A DNA stretch of 64,000 bases from sequence record OR062947.1. The stretch is one strand, 5' to 3'. This DNA comes from Escherichia phage 348Ecol098PP. A program made the translations under genes and the position numbers. Under the pieces are notes generated by a model. It did no database searches. It was not told the DNA's origin and was given only the letters and a program-made list of their open reading frames with translations. Shown here piece after piece: positions 3,361 through 56,794 of this stretch. Within the stretch, counting starts at the first letter, position 1. Every line of letters starts with the position of its first letter.

Positions 3361-3389
3361 AAGGGGCTTCGGCCCCTTTCTTCGTTTTT
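3361..3389 (+). terminator. Rho-independent terminator after hoc
   Basis: Hairpin GGGGC-TTCG-GCCCC followed by T-rich run. Confidence 0.6.
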
Positions 3390-3901: not shown

Positions 3902-3927
3902 TGCTTTACATTTTTTGATGGTATAAT
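3902..3927 (+). promoter_or_regulatory. MotA-box type middle promoter (TGCTTTA, 13 nt, TATAAT) upstream of rnlB
   Basis: aTGCTTTAca at 3902-3908 and TATAAT at 3922-3927. Confidence 0.5.
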
Positions 3928-4018
3928 GAATCTAGGTTCTATCCATTCAAATTAAACATCTGGTCGGAGACAGAGTCTCTGCTAATTATTTTGATATTAT
4001 TATTTATAATGGTGATTT

Positions 4019-5017
4019 ATGTTTAAGAAATACAGCAGTCTTGAAAACCACTACAACTCTAAGTTTATTGAAAAACTCTACACTAATGGTTTGACTACTG
4101 GTGTTTGGGTAGCACGTGAGAAAATCCATGGGACCAACTTCTCGTTAATAATTGAACGTGACAACGTCACATGCGCCAAGCGCACAGGCCCTATTCTTCC
4201 AGCAGAAGATTTTTATGGTTATGAAATCGTACTCAAGAAGTATGATAAAGCTATTAAAGCCGTTCAGGAATTCATGTACACAGCTCGAGCCGTATCATAT
4301 CAAGTATTCGGTGAATTCGCTGGTGGTGGAATCCAGAAAGGTGTTGACTACGGTGAAAAAGATTTTTATGTGTTCGATATCCTTATCAATACAGAAAGTG
4401 GTGATAATACGTATTTGACCGATTACGAAATGCAAGATTTCTGTAATGAATTCGGTTTTAAAATGGCACCAATGCTTGGTCGTGGCACATTTGATGCTCT
4501 TATCATGATTCCAAACGACCTTGATTCTGTCTTAGCCGCTTATAATGCTACTGCGTCAGAAGACCTTGTCGAAGCAAATAATTGTGTATTTGATGCTAAT
4601 GTTATTGGCGATAATACGGCAGAAGGTTATGTTCTGAAACCTTGTTTTCCTAAATGGTTGCCAAACGGTACTCGTGTAGCTATTAAGTGCAAGAACTCTA
4701 AATTCAGTGAAAAGAAAAAGTCTGATAAGCCTATTAAAACTCAGGTTCCATTAACCGAAATTGACAAAAACTTGCTTGATGTCCTAGCTTGTTATGTTAC
4801 ATTAAACCGTGTTAATAATGTGATTTCTAAGATTGGGACTGTAACGCCAAAAGATTTTGGCAAAGTGATGGGATTGACTGTTCAAGATATTCTGGAAGAA
4901 ACTTCTCGTGAAGGTATTGTATTAACATCATCCGATAATCCGAATCTTGTTAAGAAAGAATTAGTCCGAATGGTGCAAGATGTTCTGCGTCCTGCATGGA
5001 TTGAATTAGTATCATAA
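4019..5017 (+). CDS. rnlB: RNA ligase 2
   Basis: 332 aa; lysine-adenylation motif KIHGTN near N-terminus; position next to gene 24 as in T4; preceded by MotA-box type promoter. Confidence 0.85.
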
Positions 5018-5020
5018 CTA

Positions 5021-5048
5021 AAAAGGGACCGTAAGGTCCCTTTTTTTG
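5021..5048. terminator. Bidirectional terminator between rnlB (+) and gene 24 (-)
   Basis: GGGACC-GTAA-GGTCCC flanked by A-run and T-run. Confidence 0.65.
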
Positions 5049-6707: not shown

Positions 6708-6736
6708 CAAAAATGGGAGACCGAAGTCTCCCAAAA
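6708..6736. terminator. Bidirectional terminator between ORF 6435-6704 (+) and gene 23 (-)
   Basis: GGGAGAC-CGAA-GTCTCCC flanked by A-rich runs. Confidence 0.6.
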
Positions 6737-12140: not shown

Positions 12141-12632
12141 TTATTCCCACCAATCAAGAGCAAGAGTTACTTCGAACGTTTCAATCTCGTTATTCGAATC
12201 CCAATCAAGAGATACTTCACCGACGTTAGTAGGCCACAAGCCAACAATTTCAACTTCTTTAGTGACCGTTTTAGCATCACGAGCAAATTGACGAACGATA
12301 GCGGACTTTTTATATTCAGCAGGTTTACCACCGGTAATTTCATTACCTTGTCCTGCTGCAATACCTTGCCAATCAACAAATTTCTGACGAATGCTATGAG
12401 CATCATCGTTCATTACTGTAATAGTCCAATCATCGAATGTACGATCACCGGCCACGTTAATTTTACGGTTCATATAAGAAACAGGAACCTTTTCAACGAT
12501 CGCAGCAGGAAGAGCCGTAGCACGACACTGGAAGCTAAAGTTTTGCCCAAGATAAGAGATTTCTACTTCGAACAGGTTAGGGCGAGCGAAATCACCTGAT
12601 TCGAAGGCACGAGTTACGTCATCTACAAACAT
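12141..12632 (-). CDS. 19: Tail tube protein gp19
   Basis: 163 aa, same as T4 gp19; synteny. Confidence 0.9.
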   Translation of the reverse strand: MFVDDVTRAFESGDFARPNLFEVEISYLGQNFSFQCRATALPAAIVEKVPVSYMNRKINVAGDRTFDDWTITVMNDDAHSIRQKFVDWQGIAAGQGNEITGGKPAEYKKSAIVRQFARDAKTVTKEVEIVGLWPTNVGEVSLDWDSNNEIETFEVTLALDWWE

Positions 12633-12704
12633 ATTAGCCTCTGTAGTAATATGGGCTTAGGATTAACCTGATGCCCATAGAATTAATTTTTAAACGATAT
12701 AGTA

Positions 12705-12712
12705 TATTTATA
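12705..12712 (-). promoter_or_regulatory. Late promoter TATAAATA (gene 19)
   Basis: Plus-strand TATTTATA between the gene 18 terminator hairpin and gene 19. Confidence 0.55.
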
Positions 12713-12732
12713 TGGGCTACCGAAATAGCCCA
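12713..12732 (-). terminator. Hairpin after gene 18
   Basis: GGGCTA-CCGAAA-TAGCCC between gene 18 stop and gene 19 late promoter. Confidence 0.45.
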
Positions 12733-12744
12733 TCAGGCGTCTTA

Positions 12745-14727
12745 TTAGGCACCTACAGCACCAATTAGTTCGTCGAAATCGGCACCCGTTGCTGTTGCTA
12801 CAAAGTTCAACGTAATATAATTTATCGAGCGGGCAGGTTGTAAGTAGAAAGTAGCTACAAATTCATTACGGTCGATAACTGCTGGTGTGTTATTGGTAGT
12901 ATCACAAACAACTTTAAAGTTATATACACCACCGAGAGCTTTAATACCCTGTAGATATTGAGAAGTCTCTGTACGGAAAGAAGAACGGGTAAATGCGTTG
13001 TTCAATTCAAACAGGCGATATTTAGATGCTGAACCAATGTTCGTTTTAACCATATTGAACAAACGACGAACGTTAATACGGTCAAATGGTGAAGGAACAG
13101 AAGTGGCAGTTTTATCACCGTACAGAACATACCCATCACCACCGGTACCAGTAACAGGGTTAATAGCTTCCTGATACAAACGATCACGCTGCGCTTGGCG
13201 AGTTTCAATTGCAAGCTTAATAACGTTAAGAATTTGTCCACGGTTATAACCGGCAGGAGACATCCAAGGCTGAGAAATATTGTCTGTGCGAGCACAAAGA
13301 CCAGCAATATCAGCAGCTAATGGAACCCAACGATTCACATCATTATATTTGTCATATTGATATTTATAGTTACCGTCAATAGCAGCATAAGTAGAACTTA
13401 CATTAAAGTTATTATCAGTGTAAGTTCCTGACGCAGTACGCCAATCAACCAGATTATCAACTGCACGATTAACAGGAATACCGACTATAGTTGCACGTGG
13501 TGGTGAGCAAAGAACCAAACAATCTTGGCGAGAATCACCAATTGCTACAACATGTTTCTGAACTGTAGAAGCAACTTCTAAAGATTCACCTGCACAAGAA
13601 CCAGCAATAAACAACTGCGCATTAACAGATTCACGGTCAGCAAACAAATCCCAAGCTTCCATTAAATCACCAGCGTCAACAGTTTCATTAGATGATAAGC
13701 CACCACCCAGTTTGATTACGCCAGAGAAACCTTTTGGCCAACCTTGTGCAGTAGCGAAAATATAATTGCTTGCGCCTTTAGCAAAGAAATCATCAATAAA
13801 GATATTACTACCATAAATATCGCGTTCACCACGTTTAGTAGAAAGAACCACACTCTGGACTACAGCATCGTTACGACGAACGATAATTGCATATTGGTCA
13901 TCAGTTTGTGGGCCGTACCCAAAGATTGCTTTAGCAGTAGATGCACGAGTACCACCATCAGGATAAATTTTTAACTGGGCTGAAGCACCTTTGTCATAGT
14001 CTGCTTTAGATACGATTTCAATTTCAAGCTGGTCGCCAAGTTCACCAGGATAAAGAGCAACTACGCCTGGGACACCATATTTTTTAATAGATTCTTGGAA
14101 AGTTAGAGAAGTAATAGCTTCTTCAGAAGTTTCAACTTCAGTTAACAGAATACCCGAATCGGTTACGATAGAACCAATTGTAATAACGCCAGAGAGACCA
14201 GAAGAAGAACTGGCAACTTCGGCGGTCCAGTTAGAACCCAATGCCGGATATTCATTAATTTCTTTTGCACGAGCAATAATTTTACCGGTTGGGATATAAA
14301 TGTTAAGAATTTTACCATCGACATCAACTGAAGTGACATAACCATCTGCTTCAACAGTTTCGGTCAAATACTTAACGATAATTTTATCACCAACTGCATA
14401 GTTACTACCAGCAGCAGAGATTGTGAATTCAATATTGCCTGCTACAGGAGATGAGTTCTTAGCAGTATCACGATCAACTGCGCGTACAACACGAAGGTCA
14501 TTACCATATTGAAGGAAGTTCATAGCAGACATGAAATAATCTGCTGTATCCGTATTAGGAGTACCAAACATATCAACTAATGCAACTTCATCAGTGATTT
14601 GTTTAATCTGGAATGCAGGTCCCCATTGGAATTTTCCAGCCAGGGCAGCAGTACCAGTGGAGTTATTAACTACAGTACTCTGTACGGTAGTTTCTTTGAG
14701 CTCAACGCCCGGAGAGAGAAGTGCCAT
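12745..14727 (-). CDS. 18: Tail sheath protein gp18
   Basis: 660 aa; synteny; late promoter 14755-14762. Confidence 0.9.
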   Translation of the reverse strand: MALLSPGVELKETTVQSTVVNNSTGTAALAGKFQWGPAFQIKQITDEVALVDMFGTPNTDTADYFMSAMNFLQYGNDLRVVRAVDRDTAKNSSPVAGNIEFTISAAGSNYAVGDKIIVKYLTETVEADGYVTSVDVDGKILNIYIPTGKIIARAKEINEYPALGSNWTAEVASSSSGLSGVITIGSIVTDSGILLTEVETSEEAITSLTFQESIKKYGVPGVVALYPGELGDQLEIEIVSKADYDKGASAQLKIYPDGGTRASTAKAIFGYGPQTDDQYAIIVRRNDAVVQSVVLSTKRGERDIYGSNIFIDDFFAKGASNYIFATAQGWPKGFSGVIKLGGGLSSNETVDAGDLMEAWDLFADRESVNAQLFIAGSCAGESLEVASTVQKHVVAIGDSRQDCLVLCSPPRATIVGIPVNRAVDNLVDWRTASGTYTDNNFNVSSTYAAIDGNYKYQYDKYNDVNRWVPLAADIAGLCARTDNISQPWMSPAGYNRGQILNVIKLAIETRQAQRDRLYQEAINPVTGTGGDGYVLYGDKTATSVPSPFDRINVRRLFNMVKTNIGSASKYRLFELNNAFTRSSFRTETSQYLQGIKALGGVYNFKVVCDTTNNTPAVIDRNEFVATFYLQPARSINYITLNFVATATGADFDELIGAVGA

Positions 14728-26089: not shown

Positions 26090-26115
26090 AAAAATGGGAG
26101 CCCGAAGGCTCCCTA
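26090..26115 (-). terminator. Hairpin after gene 8
   Basis: GGGAGCC-CGAA-GGCTCCC between gene 8 stop and gene 9 late promoter. Confidence 0.5.
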
Positions 26116-44148: not shown

Positions 44149-44170
44149 GGAGGACTCCGGTCCTCCTTTT
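44149..44170 (+). terminator. Rho-independent terminator
   Basis: GGAGGAC-TCCG-GTCCTCC + TTTT. Confidence 0.55.
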
Positions 44171-53973: not shown

Positions 53974-54432
53974 ATGACTATCAATTCAGACGTTTTTATC
54001 CGCCGTAATAAACTCCGTCGAATCTTTGAAACGGAGTTCCGCAAAATAAATGCCGGTATAAAAGATGCTGCAAAGTCTCTTGGACTACCAGGCTTTCATA
54101 TCAAGTATTCTCAACATCTCTTAGATCGTGCCATCCAGAGAGAAATAGATGAGAATTACGTTTTTGAATTATTTCATAAAGTAAAAAATCATGTTAAAGA
54201 AGTTGCAGAATTTTTATCAATGCCGGCACGTCCAGATGTTGATGAAGATTTTGTCGAAGGTGTCGAATATCGCCCAGGCCGTTTAGAAATAACTGATGGA
54301 AATCTTTGGTTAGGACTTACAGTTTGTCGCGAAAATCCAGCATTCAAAATGAAGACTCTTCAATGCAGAATGGCTATTATTAACAGTAAACGACTACCAG
54401 GAAAAGCTTCTAAAGCAGTGATTAAAATCTAG
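53974..54432 (+). CDS. regB: RegB endoribonuclease
   Basis: 152 aa; MTINSDVFIRRNKLRR...YSQHLLDRAIQREIDE...RLPGKASKAVIK matches remembered T4 RegB. Confidence 0.9.
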   Translation: MTINSDVFIRRNKLRRIFETEFRKINAGIKDAAKSLGLPGFHIKYSQHLLDRAIQREIDENYVFELFHKVKNHVKEVAEFLSMPARPDVDEDFVEGVEYRPGRLEITDGNLWLGLTVCRENPAFKMKTLQCRMAIINSKRLPGKASKAVIKI

Positions 54433-54440
54433 AGGTAAAC

Positions 54441-54983
54441 ATGAGAAAAGCACTACTCGCTGGTCTATTTGCTCTTTCGTTATCAGCACATAGCTCCGAG
54501 CATACTTTTAGTAATGTCCAACTCGATAACTTGAATTATGCTTATCAGTTTGGGGAACAGTTTTCTAAGGACGGAAAATTTAAAACGCATGAAAATATGC
54601 ATAAGAAAGGACTTGGATACATAATGGCCGCAATACTATGGCAAGAATCATCTGCCGGTATTAATCTTAAAGATAAGAAAGGTCACCATGCGTATGGAAT
54701 GTTCCAAAACTATCTACCGTCAATGAGGGCAAGAATTAACCAGCTTGGTTATAATATGACTGATGCCCAAATTAAGAAAATGCTATCTAAGCGGTCTAAT
54801 TCAGCCAGATGGGCTTATATCGAATTTTCTTATTGGTTAAATATACATAATGGGGATATAAGAAAAGCTATATCCTCATATAATGCGGGATGGAAGACAA
54901 GTGCTGGAAGTAAATATGCTTCTGAAGTCCTAGAAAAGGCTAATTACCTTAAATCAAATAAACTACTGGAAATAAAAGAATGA
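54441..54983 (+). CDS. Secreted lytic transglycosylase (SLT-domain) protein
   Basis: 180 aa; N-terminal signal peptide; SLT-like motifs WQESS, AYGMFQ, YNAG. Confidence 0.55.
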   Translation: MRKALLAGLFALSLSAHSSEHTFSNVQLDNLNYAYQFGEQFSKDGKFKTHENMHKKGLGYIMAAILWQESSAGINLKDKKGHHAYGMFQNYLPSMRARINQLGYNMTDAQIKKMLSKRSNSARWAYIEFSYWLNIHNGDIRKAISSYNAGWKTSAGSKYASEVLEKANYLKSNKLLEIKE

Positions 54984-55327
54984 CCAAAATGTTGGCTTTA
55001 ATAGTTGGCTTGGTTTCATTTAACGCTCTTGCTAATACTACATATACTGATGTAACGGAGTATACAAACAGAACGGCGTCTGATTATTGTGGTAAAAGTC
55101 AAGAGTGTAAAGTAGATTTTTCACAAAAATTGTTATATGCGTATAAAGACGGAGAAAAAGATGGGGCGTCTAGTAGGTTCAAGGCGTCTACCTTAATTAA
55201 AAGATACTATAAAAAATGGCAAATATTAGAATGCTCGGTGGCGGAACCTAAAGATAAGGCAGCATGCAATTCTATGGTGGACCGTCTAGTTGACTCTTAT
55301 ACTAGAGGACTTGCAGCAAGTGATTAA
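54980..55327 (+). CDS. Predicted exported/periplasmic protein
   Basis: 115 aa; signal peptide MTKMLALIVGLVSFNALA; 4 Cys. Confidence 0.45.
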   Translation: MTKMLALIVGLVSFNALANTTYTDVTEYTNRTASDYCGKSQECKVDFSQKLLYAYKDGEKDGASSRFKASTLIKRYYKKWQILECSVAEPKDKAACNSMVDRLVDSYTRGLAASD

Positions 55328-55784
55328 AAACTATATCAAGGGCGATATTGTCGCCCTGTTTTCTAAAGGTAATAATATTGCTCATGGGTGTAATTGTTTT
55401 CATACAATGGGCGCTGGTGTGGCAGGACAATTAGCAAAGGCTTATCCAAAAATTCTGGAAGCCGATAAACTTCAAACCGAATTCGGAGACGAGTCTAAAC
55501 TCGGGACTTATTCGGTTTATGAAAAATATTTTAAGACCCATAAAGCTTATTGCTTTAATCTTTATACACAGTTTGAGCCGGGACCTAATTTTGAGTACTC
55601 TGCTTTAATGAATTGTATAATAGAATTAAATGAATTCGGAAAGAATAAGATAACAAAGCCTGTAATTTATATGCCAAGAATTGGTGCAGGTATTGGTGGT
55701 GGAAACTGGGACGTCATCGAAGAGATTTTAGATACGTATTCTACTAAACTAGAAATTGTGATTGTTGATTGGGAACCTAAATGA
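55320..55784 (+). CDS. Macro-domain protein (ADP-ribose binding/processing)
   Basis: Macro-like motifs GDIV...IAHGCNC...GAGVAGQLAKA and IGAGIGGG; start uncertain (GTG 55320 or TTG 55290). Confidence 0.5.
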   Translation: MIKNYIKGDIVALFSKGNNIAHGCNCFHTMGAGVAGQLAKAYPKILEADKLQTEFGDESKLGTYSVYEKYFKTHKAYCFNLYTQFEPGPNFEYSALMNCIIELNEFGKNKITKPVIYMPRIGAGIGGGNWDVIEEILDTYSTKLEIVIVDWEPK

Positions 55785-55963
55785 AATTAACTAAAGAAGA
55801 GAAAGCTAAACTGTTCGAACTTATCCATGACCTATTGGATGAGCAAGCAGCCACCAATGCGTACGATGAATATGCTCCTTTAACAGATGAAGAATATCAA
55901 GCATTGATGGAATCATTTGACAGGAAAGAACAAGAACTCATTGACTACGTGAATTCACTATAA
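55781..55963 (+). CDS. Hypothetical acidic protein
   Basis: 60 aa ORF overlapping upstream stop. Confidence 0.4.
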   Translation: MKLTKEEKAKLFELIHDLLDEQAATNAYDEYAPLTDEEYQALMESFDRKEQELIDYVNSL

Positions 55964-55972
55964 GGGACTCTT

Positions 55973-56554
55973 ATGGCTAGTTTAATTTTTACATATGCCG
56001 CTATGAACGCTGGTAAGTCTGCTTCATTACTTACTGCCGCACATAACTATAAAGAACGTGGCATGGGTGTATTAGTTCTTAAACCGGCTATTGATACTCG
56101 TGATTCAAAGGGTGAAATAGTCTCTCGTATTGGTATTCGTCAGGATGCCAATATAATTACAAAAGACATGGATATCTTTGAATTCTATAAATGGGCTGCA
56201 GCACAAAAGGATATTCACTGCGTATTTGTTGACGAAGCTCAGTTCTTAACTACTGAAAAGGTGTATCAACTTAGTCGTATTGTTGACGTATACAATGTGC
56301 CAGTAATGGCATATGGACTACGAACAGATTTTAAAGGTAATCTATTTGAAGGTTCTCAAGCATTAATGGCTATTGCCGATAAGCTTGTTGAACTTAAAGG
56401 TGTCTGTCATTGTGGTAAAAAGGCCACAATGGTAGCTAGAGTCACGGAAGATGGACTTCCAATTACAGATGGCAGTCAAATTGAAATTGGTGATACCGAT
56501 AGATATGTGTCATTATGCCGGAAGCATTGGAATGATTTGACAGGGTTGTTATAA
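55973..56554 (+). CDS. tk: Thymidine kinase
   Basis: 193 aa; P-loop AMNAGKSA; C-terminal Cys cluster; size matches T4 Tk. Confidence 0.9.
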   Translation: MASLIFTYAAMNAGKSASLLTAAHNYKERGMGVLVLKPAIDTRDSKGEIVSRIGIRQDANIITKDMDIFEFYKWAAAQKDIHCVFVDEAQFLTTEKVYQLSRIVDVYNVPVMAYGLRTDFKGNLFEGSQALMAIADKLVELKGVCHCGKKATMVARVTEDGLPITDGSQIEIGDTDRYVSLCRKHWNDLTGLL

Positions 56555-56581
56555 ATACTAATATCTAACCAAGAGGTATAT

Positions 56582-56794
56582 ATGCAGCAATTAAACGAAA
56601 GACAACTTCGTAATCTTACTGTAACCCAATTGGATGAAATCCGAAGAGAATTAGGACATTCTATTTCTCATTTAAACGAGGATATCCGTCAAACTGGTTC
56701 TAAAGCTGATTATACACGCAAGCGCAAGCTGGAAAAATACCTCACAGATGTTAAGGCCGTCCAAAGGCGAAAAATAAATACTGGCCAAAATTAA
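56582..56794 (+). CDS. Hypothetical protein (T4 rI.-1 position)
   Basis: 70 aa ORF between tk and rI. Confidence 0.45.

Follow-up and report, generated by a model that had tools for sequence, protein, structure and literature searches.

The tk.4 (adfM) gene of an RB69-like Escherichia phage: a predicted glutamine-type TARG1-like macrodomain that probably counteracts DarTG2

Introduction

DNA ADP-ribosylation by DarT is an established antiviral mechanism, in which DarT2 modifies thymidine in single-stranded DNA and so blocks phage replication (PMC11825919). T4-type phages stack several factors against DarT, namely AdfA, AdfN and AdfM. Phage T4 without adfA and adfN remained resistant to DarTG2, and a further factor was therefore expected (PMC11825919). 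In the same study, DarTG2 was active only with chloramphenicol present below its inhibitory concentration (PMC11825919). When a saturated T4 transposon library was grown on a DarTG2 host, tk.4 was the only significant hit (HIDEN-SEQ, bioRxiv 10.1101/2025.11.20.689424, November 2025), a result that fills the gap left by the work on adfA and adfN. A clean deletion of tk.4 rendered T4 sensitive to DarTG2, the gene was renamed adfM (anti-DarT factor, macrodomain), and the authors inferred from fold similarity that T4 AdfM removes ADP-ribose from DNA (bioRxiv 10.1101/2025.11.20.689424). Here we analyze the tk.4 gene in 64,000 nucleotides of Escherichia phage 348Ecol098PP (sequence record OR062947.1), a stretch referred to below as the window.

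Macrodomains of the TARG1-like class reverse thymine- and uracil-linked ADP-ribosylation (PMC9411070, PMC13036486). In two of them, the macrodomain of the antitoxin DarG and human TARG1, substitution of a catalytic lysine (K80A and K84A, respectively) leaves the protein unable to rescue cells from DarT toxicity (PMC8501950, PMC8883491). The Streptomyces coelicolor protein SCO6735 (PDB 5e3b) is a thymidine-ADP-ribose DNA hydrolase that carries a glutamine, Gln85; wild-type SCO6735 rescues Escherichia coli from DarT and surpasses both DarG and TARG1 in the efficiency with which it takes DarT-made ADP-ribose off thymidine (PMC9411070). Its Q85A substitution abolishes the hydrolysis of thymidine-linked ADP-ribose (dT-ADPr) and N27S nearly abolishes it, Asn27 serving to lock Gln85; the mechanism proposed is water-mediated and backbone-assisted (PMC9411070). 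As the gene is already annotated and the role of its T4 orthologue against DarTG2 is already described in a preprint, tk.4 is known, not new. What our analysis adds is a reading of the active site, which places Tk.4 with SCO6735 and not with a captured DarG.

Tk.4 is a macrodomain of the TARG1/ALC1-like class

The tk.4 open reading frame starts with GTG, ends with TGA (55782-55784) and encodes 154 amino acids, according to the list of open reading frames and the sequence itself (Table 1). A first-pass annotation of the window, made from the letters alone, had proposed a macro-domain protein at this place; its interval is exact, a single long open reading frame being present within 55290-55784 on the + strand. 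The proposal was confirmed, by matches well above what chance would give. The check that it had suggested, a search with the Pfam Macro profile (PF01661), gave 28.3 bits, where the gathering cut-off is 22 (E = 1.8e-6), and covered positions 2-117 of the 118 in the profile; the protein also matched PHROG 335 with E = 5.9e-67. Against PDB sequences, phmmer returned Bacteroides BT1257 (6.5e-11), yeast Poa1p (1e-8), SCO6735 (7e-5), and DarG and TARG1 (both about 1e-3). The translation contains both segments that had been singled out as macro-domain hallmarks: residues 20-41 read IAHGCNCFHTMGAGVAGQLAKA, and residues 121-130 read IGAGIGGGNW.

An AlphaFold2 model built with 58 homologues (predicted local distance difference test score 96, predicted template modelling score 0.91) showed the three-layer alpha/beta/alpha macro fold. 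In a Foldseek search of the PDB with this model, TARG1 was the best match (1.4e-10), and Poa1p (5.8e-10), DarG (3e-8) and BT1257 were also recovered, with values ranging from 1e-10 to 1e-7. The nearest structural neighbours were TARG1, DarG, SCO6735/BT1257 and Poa1p, and the protein stood apart from the MacroD, viral and PARG types. Tk.4 is a member of the TARG1/ALC1-like class of macrodomains.

The window protein is identical to RB69 Tk.4 (NP_861803) at 153 of 154 residues; the single difference is A32, where RB69 has G32 and the family consensus, like the window protein, has alanine. Identity to T4 Tk.4 is 83-84% over 153 amino acids. The T4 protein is a full-length orthologue of the same length, encoded between vs and tk and sharing the same invariant residues; the window allele differs from it in starting with GTG instead of ATG and in 24 substitutions, none of them at an invariant position. 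The 2.2-kb surroundings share 98.8-99.0% DNA identity with RB69 and with many RB69-like Escherichia phages of the genus Mosigvirus. As judged from these sequences, the source of the window is an RB69-like Mosigvirus and the open reading frame is the RB69-type allele of T4-family tk.4, now adfM. Public records name the gene "macro domain protein", "phosphatase (A1pp motif)" or "Poa1p-like family protein".

Table 1. Features of the tk.4 locus, in window coordinates
Feature	Position	Strand	Details
tk.4/adfM coding sequence	55320..55784	+	standalone macro domain, 154 amino acids; RB69/T4 orthology; Pfam, PHROG and PDB matches; structural model
First ADP-ribose-binding loop (predicted)	55383..55427	+	residues 22-36, H-G-C-N25-C-F-H-T-M-G-A-G-V-A-G; conserved Asn25
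Strand end N-L-Y-T-Q	55557..55571	+	residues 80-84; Gln84 at the position of the catalytic lysine; three hhalign comparisons agree
Second glycine-rich loop (predicted to bind diphosphate)	55674..55709	+	residues 119-130, P-R-I-G-A-G-I-G-G-G-N-W; aligns to TARG1 P118-W129
Shine-Dalgarno sequence GAGGA	55306..55310	+	9 nucleotides 5' of the GTG, within the 3' end of vs; read from the sequence
Terminator-like hairpin	55339..55366 (stem-loop 55339-55357)	+	AGGGCGAU-AUU-GUCGCCCU followed by GUUUUCU; terminator scan
MotA-box-like middle-promoter motif	55601-55626	+	TGCTTTA, 13 nucleotides, TAGAAT; within tk.4, 5' of tk.2 and tk
vs.1	54441-54983		
vs	54980-55327	+	valyl-tRNA synthetase modifier
tk.2	55781-55963	+	60-amino-acid acidic protein, family DUF7438 (E = 2.4e-16); overlaps tk.4 by ATGA
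tk	55973-56554		thymidine kinase

A glutamine at the position of the catalytic lysine

To place the active site, we used an alignment of 58 Tk.4-family sequences (38-87% identity) and one of 36 DarG-family sequences. Among the 58 Tk.4-family members, H22, G23, C24 and N25 of the first loop are nearly invariant and C26, G33 and A35 are invariant; N80, Y82, T83 and Q84 at the strand end are invariant as well, as are P119, I121, G122 and G124 of the second loop. The window protein retains every one of the 14 residues that are invariant in the family.

Comparison of the two family profiles with hhalign (probability 99.3%, E = 3e-20) set F-N-F-P-T-K of DarG opposite F-N-L-Y-T-Q of Tk.4, with Gln84 in the column of Thermus aquaticus DarG K80 and N25 on the conserved DarG asparagine. 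Against TARG1, whose query sequence was checked against PDB 2lgr, L-I-T-K84 fell opposite L-Y-T-Q84 and D125 opposite G126. Against SCO6735 (sequence taken from the PDB alignment, numbering checked on V25, N27, L29, K34, Q85, G87 and K89), H22-G23-C24-N25 aligned onto H24-V25-C26-N27 and N80-L-Y-T-Q84 onto N-M-I-G-Q85, and a 5-residue gap opened in Tk.4 right at the extended mobile loop that follows the glutamine in SCO6735. Two other alignments placed the lysine elsewhere, a plain MAFFT alignment pairing DarG K80 with Tyr82 and phmmer pairing a BT1257 lysine with Thr83. We set both pairings aside as ungapped artefacts near a difference in loop length, given that the three profile-profile alignments yield Gln84.

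The catalytic lysine is therefore systematically replaced by glutamine across the Tk.4 family. This replacement is not a sign of an inactive enzyme, because SCO6735 also has a glutamine, Gln85, and is active. From its aligned residues, Tk.4 is best described as a TARG1-like macrodomain of the Gln type whose loop is short, as it is in DarG and TARG1, and the Gln-type match supports, by analogy, a real glycohydrolase activity on thymine-linked ADP-ribose. The chemistry, inhibitor sensitivity and substrate range of Tk.4 should accordingly be modelled on SCO6735, not on DarG.

SCO6735 and Tk.4 share the TARG1/ALC1-like macro fold, the asparagine-glutamine pair (N27/Q85 and N25/Q84, respectively) and the H-x-C-N and IGxGxxGG motifs, and both are standalone proteins, SCO6735 being encoded outside any toxin-antitoxin pair. 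They differ in overall sequence (about 21% identity), in the 5-residue loop extension that Tk.4 lacks and in Gly23 of Tk.4, which takes the place of Val25; moreover, SCO6735 is a bacterial, chromosomal, DNA-damage-induced protein, whereas Tk.4 is encoded by a phage gene. Human TARG1/OARD1 (PDB 4j5r), the best structural match, removes thymine- and uracil-linked ADP-ribose (PMC8501950, PMC13036486) and uses a K84/D125 catalytic dyad where Tk.4 has Q84/G126. The closest solved sequences are Poa1p (PDB 6lfq) and BT1257 (PDB 2fg1, 2afc). BT1257, which is uncharacterised, has the N-M-I-G-Q motif in common with SCO6735 and a longer loop than Tk.4, whereas Poa1p is an ADP-ribose-1''-phosphate phosphatase without the glutamine.

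Two proteins named AdfM

We considered whether Tk.4 could be a captured DarG2, that is, an orphan antitoxin, and rejected this candidate. The DarG2 macrodomains of T. aquaticus (5m31) and Mycobacterium tuberculosis (5m3i), as well as gp104 of phage phiKZ, read F-P-T-K with the catalytic lysine, where Tk.4 reads Y-T-Q. On the DarG equivalog NF048014 (NCBIfam), Tk.4 scored 32.4 bits against a cut-off of 250 and covered only positions 4-148 of 338; on the PADLOC DarG model, it reached 33.7 bits, compared with 132.9 for phiKZ gp104. Tk.4 consists of the macro domain only, with no C-terminal DarT-binding domain, and its neighbours are vs and tk.2, with no adjacent darT. The bacterial relatives described below are likewise standalone.

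The phiKZ protein was independently named "AdfM" and removes ADP-ribose from TNTC DNA (PMC13309987, Cell Rep 2026). It is a true DarG-like macrodomain of the Lys type, scoring 133-138 bits on DarG models and matching M. tuberculosis DarG with E = 9e-25. Its similarity to Tk.4 is marginal: a BLASTP comparison of Tk.4 with gp104 (12518-13006 in the phiKZ stretch) aligned only 23 residues. By these scores, the name AdfM covers two different macrodomain subfamilies, each recruited by phages independently.

Proposed mechanism and alternatives

We consider tk.4/adfM to encode an anti-DarTG2 macrodomain that most likely hydrolyses ADP-ribose off thymidine in phage DNA by an SCO6735-like mechanism, and put the probability of this reading at roughly three in four. 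Its starting points are established: the protein has the macro fold, its gene is an orthologue of T4 tk.4, knocking out the T4 gene has a phenotype, and SCO6735, which carries the same Asn/Gln pair, is active. By analogy, the window allele would act like the T4 allele, and its action on DNA would be catalytic. In an infected host carrying DarTG2, DarT2 puts ADP-ribose on those thymidines of single-stranded DNA that lie in TNTC motifs, and phage replication is blocked. Tk.4 most likely grips the ADP-ribose moiety with its two glycine-rich loops and cleaves the bond between ribose and thymine by hydrolysis, which would make the DNA replicable again. The reaction most likely does not follow that of DarG and TARG1, which need the catalytic lysine; the lysine-independent mechanism of SCO6735 is more likely, in which case N25 would lock Q84, Q84 would position the distal ribose and a backbone-held water would start cleavage, as proposed for N27 and Q85. 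Binding of DarT2 by Tk.4 may also contribute.

Several points weigh against this reading. The preprint deduces hydrolysis by Tk.4-type proteins from fold similarity alone. The lysine that is indispensable in DarG (K80A) and TARG1 (K84A) (PMC8501950) is missing in Tk.4, so that activity cannot simply be transferred from DarG. Tk.4 is also without the 5-residue mobile-loop extension, to which the authors of the SCO6735 study tie its high activity on DNA (PMC9411070). Finally, the DarTG2 phenotype was measured on the T4 allele, not on the window allele, and the T4 evidence is a preprint.

The missing lysine would fit a non-catalytic blocker that, like AdfA or AdfB, binds DarT2 or the modified DNA and whose hydrolysis is weak or absent. 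Other phage anti-DarT factors work through binding (PMC10760071), and the Q85A form of SCO6735, although catalytically dead, still inhibits DarT in vitro and does so to a greater extent than dead DarG or TARG1 (PMC9411070). However, the whole pocket is conserved (C26, G33, A35, Q84, G122 and G124 invariant, N25 nearly so), which fits catalysis better than a protein interface; family members also occur on bacterial chromosomes with no recurrent toxin neighbour, and SCO6735, itself of the Gln type, is more active on dT-ADPr than either DarG or TARG1. We regard a mainly blocking role as improbable. The legacy annotation points instead to a Poa1p-like ADP-ribose-1''-phosphate phosphatase, or an O-acetyl-ADP-ribose deacetylase, acting on small NAD-derived molecules. 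Of the Poa1p active site, His23 corresponds to H22 in Tk.4, and Ser30 aligns with Thr29, at an overall identity of about 24%. Gln84, which is invariant, has its counterpart in the DNA hydrolase SCO6735, whereas Poa1p reads serine there in the phmmer alignment; the T4 knockout phenotype is specific to DarTG2; and the "A1pp motif" label is a homology transfer, not the outcome of an assay. We know, moreover, of no phage or E. coli pathway that makes ADP-ribose-1''-phosphate in quantity during T4-type infection, and a metabolite enzyme is in our view very unlikely.

The first-pass annotation had raised the possibility of a counter-defence role, the reversal of a bacterial toxin's ADP-ribosylation. 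This general idea has held up, the T4 orthologue being needed for DarTG2 resistance; the likely substrate, however, is ADP-ribosyl-thymidine in phage single-stranded DNA and not, as had been suggested, an ADP-ribosylated protein or an immune signal. Alt, ModA and ModB, the three ADP-ribosyltransferases of T4-type phages, would supply modified proteins for an eraser of ADP-ribosylation to act on, as would protein-modifying toxins of the host. These three transferases modify arginine, and cleavage of arginine-linked ADP-ribose by TARG1-like macrodomains is not known to us, so the proposed link to Alt, ModA and ModB finds no support. SCO6735 and TARG1 also hydrolyse ADP-ribose on acidic protein residues (PMC9411070), which speaks for a protein substrate, but the T4 transposon screens tie tk.4 to DarTG2 only (bioRxiv 10.1101/2025.11.20.689424); a protein eraser seems about as unlikely as a metabolite enzyme. 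We give hardly any credence to the idea that Tk.4 degrades or soaks up an ADP-ribose-derived immune signal, such as the cyclic ADP-ribose isomers of Thoeris: ThsA is matched no better than generic macro domains are, there is no phenotype that connects tk.4 with Thoeris, and every one of the closest relatives is a TARG1-like glycohydrolase.

Recognition of the open reading frame as adfM would explain part of the host range of RB69-like phages on DarTG2 strains, which matters in the choice of therapeutic phages.

Distribution and allelic variation

Searching 50,697 phage records by tblastn, we found relatives of Tk.4 in 2,800. They belong to Straboviridae and several other large lytic groups, with hosts in Escherichia, Klebsiella, Salmonella, Pseudomonas, Vibrio, Acinetobacter and Aeromonas. 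A scan of bacteria and archaea with one genome per species recovered relatives in 396 genomes, including Ruegeria, Desulfobacter, Verrucomicrobia and Vibrio aestuarianus. The best 80 of these share 35-45% identity with Tk.4; N-x-Y-T-Q is kept in 70 of them, and most are standalone proteins of 140-180 amino acids. Clustering of the genes next to the best bacterial relatives, by a crude grouping of open reading frames that included no DarT profile search, returned lineage-specific housekeeping genes and no recurrent toxin-like partner. In Rhodobacterales, several Tk.4-type macrodomains adjoin a gene for an endonuclease/exonuclease/phosphatase-family protein or for an enzyme dependent on pyridoxal phosphate. 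The bacterial relatives appear to resemble SCO6735, a free-standing protective hydrolase, rather than the antitoxin of a DarTG operon.

A broader proposal is that the Tk.4 type forms a distinct and widespread lysine-independent, short-loop branch of TARG1-like macrodomains and reverses N3-pyrimidine ADP-ribosylation in general, whether it is on thymine in DNA or on uracil in RNA. We hold it to be unlikely. If true, Tk.4 would give protection not only from DarT2 but from several DarT-like toxins.

The gene is also variable within Tequatrovirus. T4 Tk.4 (3923-4390) and its counterpart in Shigella phage SHFML-11 (1501-1980; both given as positions in the excerpts) are only 58% identical, whereas vs.1, vs and tk are 99-100% identical between the two phages. 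The DNA is nearly the same through the first 40 or so nucleotides of tk.4, including the hairpin described below, and diverges after that point; the small open reading frames between tk.4 and tk differ as well. In addition, T4 Tk.4 is close to the RB69-like allele (83-84%) although the vs proteins are only 67% identical, vs being the most diverged flanking gene between T4 and the window. The comparison of T4 with SHFML-11 points to an allelic replacement confined to tk.4. Alleles at 58% identity might differ in specificity for the products of different toxins, or might serve to evade host counter-measures.

Start site and gene neighbourhood

The first-pass annotation had also noted a non-ATG start, GTG or TTG, and the former is correct. 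The TTG at 55290 falls within vs, and we rejected it as the start of tk.4: homologues all open with M-I-(K/V) at the GTG/ATG codon, and the same GTG is annotated as the start in RB69 (NP_861803), the homologous T4 codon being ATG. The GAGGA 5' of this GTG is found at the equivalent T4 position too. The start of tk.4 overlaps the stop of vs (GTGATTAA), with the vs TAA (55325-55327) lying over tk.4 codons 2-3. With a good Shine-Dalgarno sequence present, this overlap suggests translational coupling and not weak initiation, the possibility that had been raised.

The gene order is vs.1, vs, tk.4, tk.2, tk, rI.1 and rI. It is the order of RB69, and that of T4 minus tk.3 and tk.1, which in T4 lie between tk.4 and tk. 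Thymidine kinase is therefore nearby, as had been noted, but not directly adjacent, tk.2 being interposed.

A hairpin at the start of tk.4

A terminator scan revealed a GC-rich hairpin of 8 bp that lies 12 nucleotides 3' of the vs stop and within tk.4 codons 7-13. It uses the codons GGC and GCC in an AT-rich genome and is one of about ten of such strength in the 64 kb, several others of which lie just 3' of gene ends. The hairpin is identical in T4 and SHFML-11 and is kept, with one U.G pair changed to U-A, in a Krischvirus whose protein is only 46% identical; Karamvirus, Moonvirus, Jiaodavirus and Lazarusvirus have a changed peptide and lack the hairpin. It may serve as an attenuator that reduces read-through from vs into tk.4, or as a stabiliser for the 3' end of a vs RNA. 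If expression of tk.4 is limited at all, the hairpin would be a better candidate for the cause than the GTG start. A fold of 55295-55385 paired UAGAGGAC with GUUUUCUA (z = -2.1), which would sequester the Shine-Dalgarno sequence; it was not reproduced by a slightly different fragment or by T4, and we rejected it.

Other observations

The MotA-box-like pattern, a copy of which lies within tk.4, is enriched in the window, with 17 matches against 6.1 +/- 2.5 expected. The tk.4 motif does not occur in T4, so we treated it as weak and did not retain it as a promoter.

Tk.2 of the window and Tk.2 of T4 are only 48% identical. The window Tk.2 matched the Acb2/Tad1 hairpin domain below threshold, at 12.7 bits where the cut-off is 27 (E = 0.15), and this match is probably noise. 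As for the neighbouring vs, no other T4 gene was depleted as strongly in minimal glucose medium in the HIDEN-SEQ preprint (bioRxiv 10.1101/2025.11.20.689424).

Many close relatives match window positions 54400-56600 in two pieces and span about 2,616 bp there, compared with 2,201 bp in the window and RB69. These longer relatives thus hold about 415 bp extra within this stretch, probably one additional small open reading frame.

Elsewhere in the window, strong GC-rich tetraloop hairpins with U-runs were found at 3361-3378, 5020-5045, 6714-6733, 26096-26113 and 44149-44166, most of them just 3' of long open reading frames. They are probably ordinary intrinsic terminators, and those at 5020 and 44149 look bidirectional.
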